Origin: Deltaproteobacteria bacterium
GTDB lineage: Bacteria > Myxococcota > Myxococcia > SLRQ01
Direction: 5' to 3'
Length of the DNA stretch: 64,000 bases
Assembly (NCBI GenBank): GCA_007130885.1
Contig: SLRQ01000050.1
Location: forward strand, 38,661 to 102,660
Shown: piece after piece, positions 41,670 to 53,730 of the stretch
Layout: each line of letters starts with the position of its first letter
How positions within the stretch are numbered: position 1 is the stretch's first letter
The notes under the pieces: model-generated
What the model saw: only the letters and a program-made list of their open reading frames with translations
What the model was told of the DNA's origin: nothing
Databases searched by the model: none
Program-made: the position numbers and the translations under genes

Positions 41670-44600
41670 ATGATCGAGCTGATTTACTCCAACAGGACCG
41701 AGATGCTGCTGCGGCGTTTGGTGTCCGACATCTCCGAAGGACGCCGCTCCGGCATGCACCCGTTGGACCAGGTCGAGCTGGTGGTCCCCAACCGAAACAT
41801 GGAGACTTGGGTGCGACTCGGCTTGGCCCAGGCAATGGGGGTAGCCGCCAACCTTAGGTTCAGAAGGCTGGAGGAGTTCGTTGGAGACATCGTCGAAGTC
41901 GCCACCGATGGGAAGGTACGGCTTGCCGGCCTCGATTTGGTCGAGTCCGCGGTTCTTTCCGTTCTTCTCGATGACGATGCGTTGGGCCGAGATGACCTCG
42001 AGCCGGTTCGGCACTATCTGGAAAGCGGAACGGAAGGCGCGGGGCATGATCGCGTTCTCGAGGCGGATGGTTTCGACCTGCGAGCCGTGCAGCTGGCGGC
42101 CCGCATGGCTCTTCTATATCAAGAGTACGTTTTTTCCCGGCCGGAAATGATAGCCGCCTGGCGGACGAAACCTGACGACCTGTTTGGGACTGATTCCCTG
42201 CTGACGCGTACTTCCAAGCTTTCGCAGTCGCAGGGACGAAAAGACCTGGAGTCAACGGCGGTCTGGCAGCGCGCGCTCTGGAGGTTGGTGTTCGGGGAGG
42301 GAGGTGTTCTGTCGGCAAGTCCCCCCGCGGGCGGTGGGAAGTGGACGACGCTCGACATCTTGGTGGAGGACCAGAGCGTGTTGGAGCCACTCCGGGATGC
42401 GTCGCTTCCAGGAATTCATGTTTTCGGAGTGTCGTACGTTGCACGGTTGTTTCAGCTTCTTTTCGCCCGGCTGGGTGAGGCAACTGATCTTCGCGTCTAT
42501 ACCCTGAACCCCTGCGCCGAGTACTGGGAAGATCTGGCAACGGAACGCGAGAAATGGCGCAGGTCCGTCTTTCGCGCCGCGAGACGCGGGGACGACGATG
42601 AGGATCCTTTCGGTCTGTCGGAGGCTGACAACCCGGCTCTTCGCTACTGGGGCCGGCCGGGACGCGAGCACATACGGCTTCTAGGAGAGCTGACGGAGTG
42701 TGATTTTACGAGTGCTTTTCAAACCCCCAACTCCGATGGAAGCGGCGGTCTTCTTCACCGCCTTCAAGAAGACATTTTGGCGCGCGAGCCGGAGCGCGTC
42801 GTGGGCGGCGACATCGCGGCTCCGGACGCGACCATCAAGCTCGTGGCGGCACCCTCGGTGCGCCGTGAGGTCGAGTGGGTGGCCGACGAGATCTGGCGGT
42901 TGATGCGGGATGACCTGCCGGGGAAAGGGGAGATGCCGCTGCGCTTCAACGATGTGGCCGTCATTGTCAACAGCGCAAGCAGGGATGAGTACCTCCCCCA
43001 CATAGAAACTGTCTTCTCCGCTTGTCACCACCTCCCAAGCAGTGTGTCGGACATCTCGGCCGAGGCGGGCAGCCCTTTGATCGAGGCGATGAAGATGCTG
43101 CTAGATCTGCCGTTCGGGTGTTTCTCCCGGGCCGAGATGCTCGCCTTGATGGGACATTCCGCGGTCACCGGCGGCTTCGGGGATATCAGTGCCGATGACC
43201 TTGCGTTTCAGGCGGAGGCTCTGGGAATAGTATTCGGTGCCGATCGGAGCCATCACGCCGGAACCTACATAGACGAGGACGTGTACAACTGGGACCAAGG
43301 TGTTCGCCGCTTGGCTTTGGGGGCTTTCATGACCGGCGAGAAAAGCGGCGACGAGCGGGTCTTCGAGACCGACCAAGGCAGGTGGCTGGTGGAGGAGCTG
43401 AGAGGTTCTTCGATGTCCTCCGCCGCTCACTTCGGTCTTCTGGCTCGTTCTCTCATAGCGGATGCGCGGTTCGTGCGCGAACGCAAAATGACCCTTTCCA
43501 GATGGGCACGGTTCTACCAGGCTCAGGTGGACGCCTATCTGAACGTTGCCGGTGATGGGGACGAGCGGGATCGCCTGCGGTGCTTGCGAGCCCTTTCGAC
43601 CCTGGAGGCTCGCGACCTCGGTGGTAAGGTGAGCGGTAGGATAGCGGCAGAGTTCGCGGGCAGGGCGCTTTCCGGTCTTACCGGCGGCAAGGGCCAGTAT
43701 CTGGCCGAAGGAGTGGTCATCTCCTCGTTCCTGCCCATGCGCGCCATTCCGTTCCGAAACGTCTTCGTGCTTGGACTTGGGGAGGGCCGATTCCCGGCAT
43801 CGAGTAGGCGCGACGCGCTGGATCTTCGGGCGGCCGGCCGTAGAGCGGGCGACGTCGATCCCTCGGAGCGCGATCGCTACATGTTCTTGGAGACGCTTCT
43901 TTGCGCTAGGGACCGTCTCTATTTGTCGTATGTTCGGCGTGATGAGCAGACGGGGAGCGACCTCGAGCCCTCCGCGGTAGTCCAGGAGCTCATGCACATT
44001 TTGAGGCGAGGTTACGTTGGAGAGGATGGAGAAAAGGATCTCGTGGTTCACCCGCCGCTTCGCCGTCATGTGGATGATGCCGACACCTTCATGGACGAGG
44101 CGCGCGTGGAAGCCAGGGTGGAGAAGCTTGGATCGGGACTTCCTGTTGATATCCGCGAGATCCAGGAGGTCGTGGGAGAGCAGACATGGTCTCGGCTCTC
44201 TTCGATGCTGGGTCTGCCGGGTGTGCCGCCCAGCATCTCGGCGGATGGCCCCGGCGTCACCGGATCGATGTCGAGCTCGAAGCAGCTTGTCGAGGGTCAC
44301 ATCCCCATCTCCATTCCGGCACTTCGAGGGTTCCTCGAGTGCCCGATGCAGGGATGGGCCAAGTTGGTGTTGGGGCTTGCCGAGGATGACGAGGACCTGG
44401 TGGACCGCGAAGAGGAGGACTTCGAGGTCGGACGCGCCATGGAGACCGTTCTGCTGCGAGAGTCATTCCTGGACGCGGCGGCGAGCGAATCCGATCCGAA
44501 CGAGATCTACGAGGACCGCGCGCAACGTCTTCGGTTGGCGGGCCGGCTACCCGTGGGGGCCCTCGGCGATATCCATGGAATACGGCACCGGGACGTGCTC

Positions 44601-51682: not shown

Positions 51683-53730
51683 GCTCGCAGGTGGCCTGGA
51701 CGCCGTTGGGCGCGGGAGCGACGGCTCTTGGAATGTCACGCGCCGGCTATCCAGACGATTTGGTTTCGCGGGTGTCGAAGTTGGACCTCGGTCCAGAGCA
51801 TGTCTTCCTTGCGTGGGAGCTGACGCGGCTGGCTTCAGACCTCTCTGATTCCGACCGTCGGGCCCTTGCAACGGTGGTGCTCGCTCTGCTCGTCGTACAG
51901 GGGGAAGGCGGGACCAGGCTGTCGCTGGATGATGAAGGTGGCAATCTAGGCCGTATTCTAGATGAGCTGGAACTGGAAGACAGCGAGAGCTTGGATATCG
52001 TTCACTTGCTGGATGAAGCTCGCCGCCTAGGAACCGGCGGCAATGTTCCCAGCGGCTTGTCGGCGGTGCTCGGACCGCCCGGTTCTTACAAGCCGCTCAT
52101 CTTGGAGCATGGTTTTCTTTACACTCAGCGGCTACAGGTTCTCGAGGAGAGGGTAGGGCGGCTGCTGTCCGATTTGCTTTCAAGCGGTTATGAAGAAGTC
52201 GGGCTCGATGGGTCGCAAGATGCGCTCTTGGATGTTCTGGATAGATGCCCGGTGCACGACGCCAGTCCCATTCGTTTGACCGAGGAACAGCAAAATGCGG
52301 TTCAACTGGCAATGGATGGGCGGGTGGCCGTGATAAGCGGCCGGCCCGGCAGCGGAAAGACGTCGATAGTGGCAAGCCTTCTTCGTGTTCTTGCCCGAAT
52401 AGGCGAACCACCTATCGAGTCGATGGCGCTCGCGGCGCCCACCGGAAAAGCTGCCGACCGCATGAGACAGTCTCTTTCGATGCAGCTATCGGCCATCAAG
52501 CGTCCGAACGAGGCGGATCTAAGGCTGATGGCCGCCTGTCCGCCCGCGGCGACACTTCACAGACTCTTGGGGTACTCGGCCGGCAGCGATCGGTTTCGGC
52601 ATAATGAGCACAATCCCCTCTCGGAGCGTCTAGTGATCGTCGATGAATGCTCCATGGTCGATCTCGACCTTATGGATCGGCTGCTTCGAGCAATGCATCC
52701 GGAAGGTCGGCTCGTTCTATTGGGCGACGCCGATCAGCTTCCGTCCGTTGATACGGGCGCCGTGCTGCGGGACCTATGCAGTGCCAAGGCGACCGAGCGA
52801 GCGCGAAGGGCCGTTGTTCTGCGGCACAGCTTCCGGGCGCGTGCCGACGATCCATCGGGTCGAGCAATTCTTTCGGTTGCGCAGTCGATCAATGATGGCG
52901 ATACGGAGGCCTTACTGAATTGCTCGGAGTCGGAGACATCCGCCAGTAAGGTTCCTCCTTGCTTGGTGAAGCGAGACCGCGCGGTTGAGCTTCAGTTCGA
53001 GGGTGCCGAGATGCTAGAAGGCTCCCTGGAGGAGACGGAGTTCTTCCTGGAGAGGTGGCTTGGGAGACTAGAGGAGGGGCTGCCCGATCTCGAGGAGCGT
53101 TTGAGTCGAGCCTACGTCCTCGCCGCGGATGGTTTCGGTCCAGAGGACACCGCCGCTTTGCTCGTGCTGCTCGGCCACTTCGAGCGGTTTCGCATTCTCT
53201 GTGCGACCAGGATGCCGCTGGATGGTACCGGTTCGGAGGCCGTCAACCGCTGGTTTCACCGCCGGCGATTGCGCTCACTAGGGGTAGGCTCGACCAAAGA
53301 CGGTCCTAGGTTTCTGGTTGGCGAGCCGGTGCTGGTTACGAGAAACGACCACCTCCGTCGCCTCTACAACGGAGACTCCGGTTTGATTGTTTGGGTGAGC
53401 CGCGACGGCGAGGATGAGAGGTCGAAGTCCTCGCCGGTGGCGGTTTTTCCTCGCGGAGATGCTCTTGCGGCCTTTTCTCTGGAATCTCTGCGCGGCAAGT
53501 TGGAACCGGCATGGGCGACCACGGTGCACAAGGCACAAGGCTCGGAGTATGACCACGTCGCGGTGATGCTGCCCACTATCGATGTTCGGCCGCTTACCCG
53601 AGAGCTTCTCTACACGGCCGTTACTCGTGCCAAGAGGTCCGTAACCATTTTGGGTTCCAGGAAACGTCTCGTGGCTGGTACGAGTCGTCGAATGGATAGA
53701 GCTTCAGGCTTATCAGCCCGTCTGAGCTAG
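51679..53730 (+). CDS. recD: Exodeoxyribonuclease V alpha subunit
   Basis: ISGRPGSGKTSIVASLL (Walker A), LVIVDECSMVDLDLM (Walker B), VTRAKRSVTILG. Start MSSQVAW; its ATG overlaps the recB stop (ATGA). Confidence 0.85.
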   Translation: MSSQVAWTPLGAGATALGMSRAGYPDDLVSRVSKLDLGPEHVFLAWELTRLASDLSDSDRRALATVVLALLVVQGEGGTRLSLDDEGGNLGRILDELELEDSESLDIVHLLDEARRLGTGGNVPSGLSAVLGPPGSYKPLILEHGFLYTQRLQVLEERVGRLLSDLLSSGYEEVGLDGSQDALLDVLDRCPVHDASPIRLTEEQQNAVQLAMDGRVAVISGRPGSGKTSIVASLLRVLARIGEPPIESMALAAPTGKAADRMRQSLSMQLSAIKRPNEADLRLMAACPPAATLHRLLGYSAGSDRFRHNEHNPLSERLVIVDECSMVDLDLMDRLLRAMHPEGRLVLLGDADQLPSVDTGAVLRDLCSAKATERARRAVVLRHSFRARADDPSGRAILSVAQSINDGDTEALLNCSESETSASKVPPCLVKRDRAVELQFEGAEMLEGSLEETEFFLERWLGRLEEGLPDLEERLSRAYVLAADGFGPEDTAALLVLLGHFERFRILCATRMPLDGTGSEAVNRWFHRRRLRSLGVGSTKDGPRFLVGEPVLVTRNDHLRRLYNGDSGLIVWVSRDGEDERSKSSPVAVFPRGDALAAFSLESLRGKLEPAWATTVHKAQGSEYDHVAVMLPTIDVRPLTRELLYTAVTRAKRSVTILGSRKRLVAGTSRRMDRASGLSARLS

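Follow-up and report, generated by a model that had tools for sequence, protein, structure and literature searches.

The two genes that lie between recC and recB in the window (the whole stretch of DNA analysed, 64,000 nucleotides) encode an undescribed enzyme partnership between a PT-barrel (ABBA prenyltransferase-fold) protein of 340 residues and a radical SAM enzyme of 478 residues. This pair very probably constitutes a functional unit that is unrelated to RecBCD.

Organisation of the recCBD locus

The gene order on the + strand, to which all coordinates here refer, is recC (41631..45368), the 340-aa gene (45485..46507), the 478-aa radical SAM gene (46494..47930), recB (47984..51682), and recD (51649..53730). 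RecC, RecB (SF1A helicase plus PD-(D/E)XK nuclease), and RecD (SF1B helicase) are all present at full length, Pfam and NCBIfam models confirm the gene identities, and the co-directional layout of the original prediction is correct. Two candidate start codons exist for both recC and recD, with alternatives at 41670 for recC and at 51679 for recD, the latter overlapping the recB stop. RecC matches Exonuc_V_gamma (PF04257, 7e-48) and RecC_C (PF17946, 1.2e-9), while its TIGR01450 match (9e-104) falls under the equivalog cutoff, indicating that recC is divergent. RecB matches UvrD-helicase (1.3e-51), UvrD_C, PDDEXK_1, and TIGR00609 (1.3e-155), and RecD scores above the equivalog cutoff of TIGR01447 (2.2e-96; 323.8 bits, cutoff 310). 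Both recB and recC are divergent, yet their domain sets are complete. The junction between the radical SAM gene and recB was recovered in two further assemblies of the same species at 99.97-100% identity; the junction of recC with the insert is found only on the 148-kb contig.

The tight co-directional packing noted earlier is real. Downstream of recC comes a 116-bp spacer (45369..45484), in which a Shine-Dalgarno-like GAGG lies ~10 nt upstream of the ATG; the two cassette genes overlap by the 14 nt first described (46494..46507) in a geometry typical of translational coupling, and the spacer before recB (47931..47983), initially given as 54 bp, counts as 53 bp and contains no terminator-like site on the + strand. 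A hairpin and a -35/-10-like pair after recC had been taken to suggest that the pair has its own promoter, a reading that our analysis does not support: the RNA fold of the recC-to-cassette spacer is not significant (z = -1.19; 23/200 shuffles equally stable), and a consensus scan of the + strand from 45200 to 48200 found no sigma-70-like promoter or terminator. Because the genes are packed tightly in one direction with no predicted terminator, co-expression with RecBCD is likely, and transcription in the window probably continues through the cassette into recB-recD.

Base composition does not clearly mark the cassette as foreign: its GC3 (0.61-0.63, versus 0.66-0.71 in the rec genes) lies within the range of the window, and the cassette is not flanked by repeats. 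Since a genome scan returned no close relatives, and hence no sister genome in which recC directly adjoins recB, we infer rather than observe that the cassette was inserted between the two genes.

The PT-barrel protein and its radical SAM partner

The 340-aa protein, which the original prediction could assign to no recognisable family, is a PT-barrel homolog of peptide and aromatic prenyltransferases. Its AF2 model, built on a 6-sequence alignment (pTM 0.78, pLDDT 73.6), comprises five alpha-alpha-beta-beta units and displays the defining features of the fold, namely five alpha-beta-beta-alpha repeats and a 10-strand antiparallel barrel. Foldseek comparison of this model with the PDB yielded 80 matches at E <= 1e-3, of which the top 50 are all prenyltransferases. 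Curated Pfam and NCBIfam models gave no match to the protein at E <= 0.01; the profile of its family, however, matches LimF (1.2e-5), 9vtd (2.7e-5), and KgpF (3.6e-5). Profile-to-sequence matches to LimF, KgpF, and DciF range from 1e-5 to 6e-3 over ~140 residues, and the family and its F-family prenyltransferase matches have GIDLR...K-L-[YF] and KMNLYY strands in common. Judged by these sequence comparisons, the protein is a distant relative of the LynF/TruF/PatF family of cyanobactin prenyltransferases rather than a member. The source organism is named for two homologs, which come from Deltaproteobacteria and Pseudomonadota MAGs and not from cyanobacteria.

In DMATS, R100, D178, and K187 form the Arg/Asp/Lys diphosphate-binding set, whereas PatF carries H125 and M136 at diphosphate-binding positions and is hence inactive (PMC3668578). 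R99, D154, and K164 of the 340-aa protein stand at the aligned Arg/Asp/Lys positions, corresponding to R68, the Asp of GIDLR, and the second Lys of SKLKLF in LimF and to R66/H125/M136 in PatF. The putative diphosphate-binding residues lost in PatF (beta-2 Arg, beta-3 Asp, beta-4 Lys/Arg) are intact in the alignment. Conservation was counted over 95 near-full-length superfamily representatives: S87, K164, and Y219 are present in 95/95; R99, Y166, D206, K217, and Y329 in 94/95; E85 in 92/95; and R162 in 90/95. D154 is kept only in the subfamily of the window and is Ala in 53/95 superfamily members, some of which carry an Asp two positions later.

The CPVC motif reported at the N-terminus is present, and this region holds a Cys4 motif, C9-x2-C12-x5-C18-x13-C32 (45509..45580), that is a probable metal site. 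The motif is kept in every full-length close homolog and in the fusion proteins P0044, P0046, P0064, and P0087, where it lies within the linker or N-terminally; about half of the 95 representatives have it. The AF2 model has a pLDDT below 50 in this region.

The earlier radical SAM assignment of the downstream protein is borne out by a PF04055 match (2.1e-15) and by the RIVLVNPP and CPNRCAFC motifs. The latter is the CxxxCxxC cluster motif (C202, C206, C209; 47097..47120) and is nearly invariant in a 14-member family, in which only P0015 has lost it. Of the two Pfam domains expected, PF04055 was thus recovered, while the B12-binding domain PF02310 reached 24.9 bits, below its gathering score of 32.1; scores against NCBIfam equivalog models all fall far under their cutoffs. 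The AF2 model (pLDDT 91.8) has a class-B architecture with an N-terminal Rossmann-like (B12-type) domain, and its Foldseek matches are led by AprD4 (2e-14), TsrM (5e-14), and MgmA (1e-12), followed by MiaB/MtaB, CysS, OxsB, and TokK. The fold thus matches both AprD4 and the B12-binding enzymes TsrM, OxsB, TokK, and CysS. Because AprD4, the best structural match, is not known to depend on cobalamin, the "B12" label is unproven for this enzyme.

Several observations join the two proteins. The PT-barrel gene directly adjoins the radical SAM gene in 12/16 non-redundant loci. At L002 a PT-barrel homolog belongs to the same cluster but lies at a distance of 6 kb, at L016 the upstream ORF is only a marginal profile match (E 1.6e-4), and the 2/16 loci L017 and L022 were recovered without the adjacent DNA. 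L001 contains a second, paralogous pair. The genes overlap by 4-14 nt in all homologous loci with gene calls, and at least six proteins are fusions of the two, in both orders: radical SAM then PT-barrel in P0044, P0046, P0087, P0121, and P0143, and PT-barrel then radical SAM in P0064. The two proteins also co-diverge (r = 0.80), a value that 0/5000 Mantel permutations reach. Co-inheritance, translational overlap, and fusion elsewhere together indicate that the two proteins act as one unit.

Candidate roles of the pair

We tentatively propose, at somewhat less than an even chance, that the Cys4-PT-barrel/radical SAM pair is an undescribed two-component system, distributed across uncultured Deltaproteobacteria-like lineages, that joins prenyl-diphosphate (carbocation) and radical chemistry on one substrate to yield a prenylated metabolite, cofactor, or peptide modification of a new class. 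In the model, an allylic prenyl diphosphate would be bound within the barrel by the inward-facing R99, R162, K164, K217, and R258, the carbocation would be shielded by Y166, Y219, and Y329, and E85 would lie near the acceptor, to a nucleophile of which the barrel would pass the prenyl group. Before or after this step, the radical SAM enzyme, using a 5'-deoxyadenosyl radical derived from [4Fe-4S]/SAM and possibly cobalamin, would modify an unactivated carbon on the same substrate, by methylation or in some other way; the Cys4 element may serve to keep the partner docked at the interface. Whether the barrel truly transfers a prenyl group is, in our estimate, an even question.

The surroundings of the homologs bear on the identity of the acceptor. 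Their neighbours are signalling, transport, or further radical SAM genes; some loci place the cassette in clusters with four or more radical SAM genes, one with a nitrogenase-like reductase and shikimate-pathway genes. Shikimate-pathway genes and a nitrogenase-like reductase at L018 and L007/L025 suggest a small-molecule substrate rather than a peptide. We favour an aromatic small molecule or cofactor derived from shikimate, with a probability just under one half; a peptide or protein acceptor is moderately less probable, and there is a small chance of something else.

The pair might instead tailor a RiPP along the lines of cyanobactin- or proteusin-type pathways, the barrel prenylating a ribosomal peptide whose gene lies elsewhere and the radical SAM enzyme C-methylating or cross-linking that peptide. 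This reading, which we regard as rather unlikely, is in keeping with the closest sequence homologs being the LynF/TruF/PatF peptide prenyltransferases. Consistent with it as well, the pair at L001, L002, L007/L025, and L023 lies beside multi-domain SPASM-like radical SAM enzymes (with B12-type ones also at L001 and L002), whose best NCBIfam matches, all sub-threshold, are to peptide maturases and "RiPP maturation radical SAM C-methyltransferase"; at L007/L025 a 59-68-aa ORF follows the 813-816-aa radical SAM gene. However, in none of the sets of loci does a conserved small ORF adjoin the pair, and the called neighbours of pair-bearing loci include no protease/macrocyclase pair or leader-peptide family, their only linked ABC transporter genes being those beside the fusion protein at L024. 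Cyanobactin machinery (PatA/PatG proteases, precursor peptide) is absent from these neighbours and from the window. Moreover, the pair stands alone in the window, at L003, and at L008; within the window it has no accompanying gene for isoprenoid supply, for a precursor peptide, or for any other pathway step, and the shikimate-associated loci point away from a peptide.

It is less probable still, and in our view unlikely, that the PT-barrel does no catalysis itself and serves as a scaffold, a role proposed for PatF. It would then bind the substrate, or a phosphorylated ligand other than a prenyl diphosphate, or present it to a radical SAM enzyme that does all the chemistry. PatF, though inactive, is a PT-barrel that cannot be dispensed with in vivo (PMC3668578), and the barrel is paired or fused with several radical SAM subtypes, as would be expected of a general adaptor; the lack of linkage to isoprenoid-supply genes and of superfamily-wide conservation of D154 also fits a scaffold. 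Against this, the residues changed in PatF (R99, D154, and K164 here) are intact, and the basic and aromatic lining of the barrel is near-invariant among the 95 representatives, a pattern typically seen where a ligand site is functional, though the ligand need not be prenyl diphosphate.

None of the 16 non-redundant cassette loci has a RecB, RecC, or RecD homolog in its flanks (up to 10 kb, tblastn E <= 1e-2). Within the limits of these recovered flanks, this is the outcome that the original prediction named as refuting a RecBCD-associated module. PADLOC defence models matched neither protein at E <= 0.01, phage and plasmid collections contained no homolog of either, and no recognised defence gene occurs among the called neighbours of the homologs. 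That the pair is a guard, sensing or protecting RecBCD against phage inhibitors or modifying DNA or RecBCD subunits and embedded for co-regulation, is consequently very improbable despite its co-directional position inside recCBD with short spacers and no predicted terminator and the recurrence of the recB junction in independent assemblies; ptrA in E. coli is itself an example of an unrelated gene filling this slot. Co-option of the pair in the lineage of the window to act with RecBCD is equally improbable. Because the cassette occupies an unrelated location in every other genome in which we found it, its placement inside recCBD looks incidental, a lineage-specific position that carries no evidence of RecBCD-linked function. 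The evidence favours the other option in the original prediction, a lineage-specific accessory: the insert is likely an autonomous two-enzyme cassette with no functional tie to RecBCD, like ptrA in the corresponding E. coli slot.

Comparison with known systems

E. coli K-12 indeed has the order recC-ptrA-recB-recD, likewise with a functionally unrelated, co-directional gene between recC and recB. There, a 176 bp gap follows recC and ptrA overlaps recB; the occupant is one periplasmic protease, whereas the window holds an enzyme pair, and the two inserts share no homology.

The class-B enzymes TsrM, MgmA/QCMT, CysS, TokK, and OxsB and the look-alike AprD4 combine an N-terminal Rossmann-like domain with a CxxxCxxC core, like the radical SAM enzyme of the window. 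They are among its best Foldseek matches (2e-14 to 5e-10); by sequence the core alone is detectable (E 3e-5 to 2e-3).

The cyanobactin F-family (PagF, LimF, KgpF, PirF, DciF) shares with the 340-aa protein a ten-strand alpha-beta-beta-alpha barrel, a ~300 aa core, homology at E about 1e-5, and the GIDLR...K-x-[YF] and NLYY strands. The 340-aa protein is only about 15-18% identical to these enzymes, adds the N-terminal Cys4 motif, is obligately paired or fused with a radical SAM enzyme, and has no cyanobactin protease or precursor genes beside its family. Relative to DMATS-type and Orf2/CloQ-type aromatic (ABBA) prenyltransferases, its R-x-K-x-Y strand motif resembles the DMAPP-binding one of DMATS, the residue identities being drawn in part from PMC3668578. 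It is shorter than the DMATS enzymes and differs from all these types in having no Pfam Trp_DMAT or PTase_Orf2 match and in its Cys4 extension and radical SAM partner.

NctPC, described in the review PMC13290415, sets a precedent: its divergent PT-barrel domain is physically joined to a terpene-cyclase domain, a second tailoring enzyme whose substrate is the prenylated product. The partner there is a cyclase and not a radical SAM enzyme, and the term "radical SAM" does not occur in that review.

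A two-gene insert in the recCBD locus

The window carries five co-directional ORFs on the forward strand, in which two genes lie between recC and recB. The flanking genes are recC (41631 or 41670 to 45368; PF04257, 7e-48, and PF17946), recB (47984–51682; UvrD-helicase, UvrD_C and PDDEXK_1 domains, TIGR00609 1e-155) and recD (51649 or 51679 to 53730; TIGR01447 2e-96, exceeding its cutoff). Of the inserted genes, a 478-aa ORF (46494–47930) matches Radical_SAM (2e-15) and a 340-aa ORF (45485–46507) is without any Pfam or NCBIfam match. The original prediction of such an insert is confirmed with minor corrections: the five ORFs are present with their families backed by Pfam and NCBIfam, the motifs it quoted are found in the inserted proteins, and the comparison with E. 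coli holds, the K-12 order being recC-ptrA-recB-recD. The 14-nt overlap of the two genes stands, but the spacer to recB is 53 bp rather than 54 bp; the spacer from recC to the 340-aa gene is 116 bp. A hairpin and promoter-like pair had also been proposed after recC, and these do not rise above background: a consensus scan of the forward strand from 45200 to 48200 yielded no sigma-70-like promoter or terminator, and the spacer RNA folds no more stably than shuffled sequence (z = -1.19).

The junction between the radical SAM (rSAM) gene and recB was seen again at 99.97–100% identity in contigs of two further same-species assemblies. At L014 and L015, loci from two assemblies of this species other than that of the window, the contig ends inside the 340-aa gene, at window positions 46276 and 46311; these ends lie 35 bp apart, and the remainder is 99.97–100% identical to the window. 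Either reduced coverage or a difference between strains at this point could account for them.

Upstream, a class-V aminotransferase/cysteine-desulfurase-like gene (40418–41653, forward strand) abuts or overlaps the recC start. Its NCBIfam matches all fall far under cutoff (best SufS, 2.5e-21, and PvdN, 3.4e-21), it does not recur beside the pair at other loci, and its assignment to SspA/DndA defence was rejected, as the weak PADLOC matches reflect generic cysteine-desulfurase family similarity. Directly after recD, a DUF2141 protein on the forward strand is followed by a convergent DUF4388 protein (53744–55600), the latter with an MshE-type c-di-GMP-binding motif, and the wider window is signalling-rich, with a PAS histidine kinase and a CHASE2 adenylate/guanylate cyclase. 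On the reverse strand, positions 4623–14852 encode a type I fatty acid synthase as a single polypeptide of 3,409 aa with a fungal/corynebacterial domain set (SAT, AT, Fas1-like helical [1.7e-91], DH, MaoC, MPT, ACP and KS); the next genes at higher coordinates, also on the reverse strand, encode a TetR regulator, a LolA-like lipoprotein and a MacB/FtsX-type ABC exporter (15288–20570).

A prenyltransferase-type barrel and a radical SAM enzyme of class-B architecture

The family of the 340-aa protein is small in word-indexed searches, with three proteins found by single sequence and three more by profile. Its eight-member alignment conserves an N-terminal four-Cys motif (Cys4; C9-x2-C12-x5-C18-x13-C32) and ten short strands bearing polar residues spaced i, i+2 (E85/S87, R99, D154, R162/K164/Y166, D206, K217/Y219, R258, E271 and Y329/Y330). 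An AlphaFold2 model built from an input alignment of six sequences (pTM 0.78, pLDDT 73.6) comprises five successive helix-helix-strand-strand units, ten strands in total, with the Cys4 segment unstructured. When the family profile was compared to all PDB sequences, the matches were prenyltransferases of the PT-barrel (ABBA) fold, namely LimF (1.2e-5), 9vtd (2.7e-5) and KgpF (3.6e-5), as well as SmiF and DciF, and the strands GIDLR...K-L-[YF] and KMNLYY(L) align between them and the 340-aa protein.

In DMATS, R100, D178 and K187 occupy DMAPP-binding positions; PatF is inactive owing to H125 and M136 in place of Asp and Lys, whereas Asp and Lys/Arg are retained in LynF and TruF, which are active (PMC3668578). 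The alignment to PDB prenyltransferases places R99, D154 and K164 of the 340-aa protein at these positions, and R156 aligns with the Arg of active cyanobactin enzymes. Exhaustive searching of 1.84 billion cluster representatives (50% identity) with HMMER returned 143 relatives at E ≤ 1e-3, 49 of them at E ≤ 1e-30. Across 95 near-full-length superfamily members, S87, K164 and Y219 are kept in all 95; R99, Y166, D206, K217 and Y329 in 94; E85 in 92; and R162 in 90, with conservation of D154 limited to the window's subfamily. As judged from these alignments, the barrel retains intact diphosphate-type residues, and the pattern looks like that of an intact ligand site and not of a decayed scaffold. 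The barrel is only distantly related to the F-family and DMATS prenyltransferases and belongs to neither; no curated model matches it, and cyanobactin machinery is absent. Among the superfamily representatives, the N-terminal 390 aa of P0058 (691 aa) lack a Pfam match, and P0138 (5,975 aa) gives an overall profile match (E 1.9e-11) with no single matched stretch reported.

The 478-aa enzyme belongs to a family of about 14 members sharing 28–65% identity, in which C202, C206 and C209 hardly vary and the N-terminal Rossmann start RRIVLINPP is conserved. Its sequence similarity to known enzymes is detectable in the core alone, its B12-binding match is sub-threshold (24.9 bits vs. a cutoff of 32.1), and all NCBIfam equivalogs fall far under cutoff. 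Assignments to ladderane/hopanoid lipid rSAMs, BchE or MiaB/RimO were likewise rejected on scores far under the curated cutoffs. The AlphaFold2 model (pLDDT 91.8) finds its nearest solved structures in AprD4 (2e-14), TsrM (5e-14), MgmA (1e-12), MtaB/MiaB, CysS, OxsB and TokK. The predicted structure has the class-B architecture. The enzyme may or may not depend on cobalamin, since its best structural match, AprD4, is not known to use it.

The barrel and the radical SAM enzyme form one unit

The comparison, which included a metagenome scan with the rSAM alignment, covered 16 non-redundant loci (L001, L002, L003, L004, L005/6, L007, L008/9, L016, L017, L018, L019, L020, L021, L022, L023 and L025). 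The PT-barrel gene directly adjoins the rSAM gene in 12 of the 16, mostly upstream with a 4–14-nt overlap and downstream in L021. L002 has its barrel homolog 6 kb downstream, within one and the same cluster, the ORF upstream of the rSAM gene in L016 is a marginal profile match (E 1.6e-4), and the DNA next to the rSAM gene was not recovered in L017 and L022. Pairwise identities of the two proteins are correlated over 12 pairs (r = 0.80), a value reached by 0 of 5000 permutations in a Mantel test. Single polypeptides also combine the two domains, in both orders and with more than one rSAM subtype: a B12-binding and Radical_SAM region precedes the barrel in P0044 (810 aa), P0046 (815 aa), P0087 (914 aa) and P0121 (830 aa), Radical_SAM precedes it in P0143 (614 aa), and the barrel comes first in P0064 (750 aa). 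P0044, P0046 and P0087 retain the Cys4 motif in their linker, and P0064 retains it at its N-terminus. These data show that PT-barrel and rSAM are one unit, coupled physically and evolutionarily. The barrels make up a PT-barrel clade outside existing Pfam and NCBIfam models, distinguished by a putatively metal-binding Cys4 extension and an rSAM partner or fusion.

The original prediction had offered the pair as a RecBCD-associated guard or modification module or, alternatively, as a lineage-specific accessory. Searching the flanks (≤10 kb) of all pair-bearing loci with the window RecB, RecC and RecD (blastp and tblastn, E ≤ 1e-2) gave matches in contigs of the window's own species and in none of the 16 non-redundant loci, nor at L024, the locus of fusion P0064. 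Neither cassette protein matches a PADLOC model. The neighbours vary instead, including histidine kinases, PilZ, EAL, sigma-54 regulators, a VWA protein, an RND adaptor and large secreted proteins, and additional rSAM genes recur. Within the loci and flanks searched, the cassette is not linked to RecBCD, and the earlier interpretation is partly supported: the guard idea is not borne out, and the occurrence of the cassette elsewhere without RecBCD neighbours favours the accessory. A horizontal-transfer signature was also rejected, and no trace of an insertion event was found. Composition is slightly unusual, with cassette GC3 at 0.61–0.63 vs. 0.66–0.71 for the rec genes, yet the window's M48 and CHASE2 genes have equal or lower GC3, and the cassette's GC, GC3 and codon distance stay inside the window range, towards its lower limit; no flanking direct or inverted repeats were found around the cassette, and neither protein has a homolog among 50,697 phage and 72,556 plasmid records. 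A one-genome-per-species scan with the window RecB returned three distant, irrelevant matches, no close relative and no uninterrupted recC-recB junction. The position of the insert in recCBD represents an ordinary gene-order variant of this lineage, like the unrelated ptrA at the same junction in E. coli. For RecBCD and phage defence the result is deflationary, since the insert provides no evidence for a RecBCD-linked guard and the recC-recB junction tolerates unrelated passengers.

Proposed chemistry and relation to known systems

We propose that the barrel would bind an allylic prenyl diphosphate and move the prenyl group onto an acceptor, and that the rSAM partner would methylate or otherwise functionalise the same substrate by radical chemistry. 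Cys4 may bind a metal, perhaps at the interface; in the rSAM-then-barrel fusions it immediately follows the rSAM domain on the C-terminal side, the place where other rSAMs have SPASM/twitch auxiliary-cluster domains.

The acceptor could be a small molecule. In the window, L003 and L008 the pair stands alone; L007/L025 encode a DAHP-synthase/chorismate-mutase as well as methyltransferases; and in L018 (JGI Ga0272442_10000742, 3791–14722, forward strand) a distant copy is surrounded by nitrogenase-like and shikimate-type genes. This co-directional cluster runs from two NifD/K-like (nitrogenase-component-1-like) subunits (694 and 430 aa) through a NifH-family ATPase (3e-76), an rSAM and the PT-barrel to the B12-type rSAM, a further two small rSAMs and a dehydroquinase/shikimate-dehydrogenase fusion, and resembles an uncharacterised pathway for a cofactor or metabolite. 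A peptide acceptor is suggested by the barrel's nearest sequence homologs, which are peptide prenyltransferases, and by the richer clusters, all of which hold multi-domain SPASM-like rSAMs and some of which hold B12 rSAMs too; the top-scoring families for these enzymes, though sub-threshold, are peptide maturases and RiPP C-methyltransferases. Among 1025 small ORFs in the cassette surroundings, all-vs-all BLAST revealed no conserved small ORF that might encode a precursor peptide, the matches being alternate-frame low-complexity noise or pairs of near-identical loci, and this too points to a small molecule. We lean slightly towards an aromatic small molecule or cofactor over a peptide, a preference that is weakly supported.

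L001 carries two paralogous pairs on opposite strands of one 21-kb contig (4609–6995, reverse; 8983–11437, forward), beside which lie a 958-aa multi-domain rSAM (AhbD/MoaA-like and HxsC-like parts), a 552-aa B12-type rSAM and a chalcone-isomerase-like protein. A protein without a Pfam match, with the N-terminal motif (S/T)xPYNHxPDW...EVYLP, flanks the rSAM gene in L001 (11559–11702, downstream, partial) and L002 (8772–9884, upstream, 370 aa), and is a third recurrent component in the window's closest relatives.

Our literature search found no paper in which 'radical SAM' is coupled to 'PT-barrel' or 'ABBA prenyltransferase'; neither prenyl nor isoprenoid appears in a 2026 review of B12-dependent rSAMs, and the term 'radical SAM' is absent from a 2026 review on the prenylation of peptides and proteins. 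In the literature searched the partnership is undescribed, and it is more interesting than the RecBCD angle. If active, it would unite carbocation-based prenyl transfer and radical SAM chemistry in one machine and offer a way into the large multi-rSAM clusters that uncultured bacteria carry. In NctPC, described in the same prenylation review, the PT-barrel is fused instead to a terpene cyclase.
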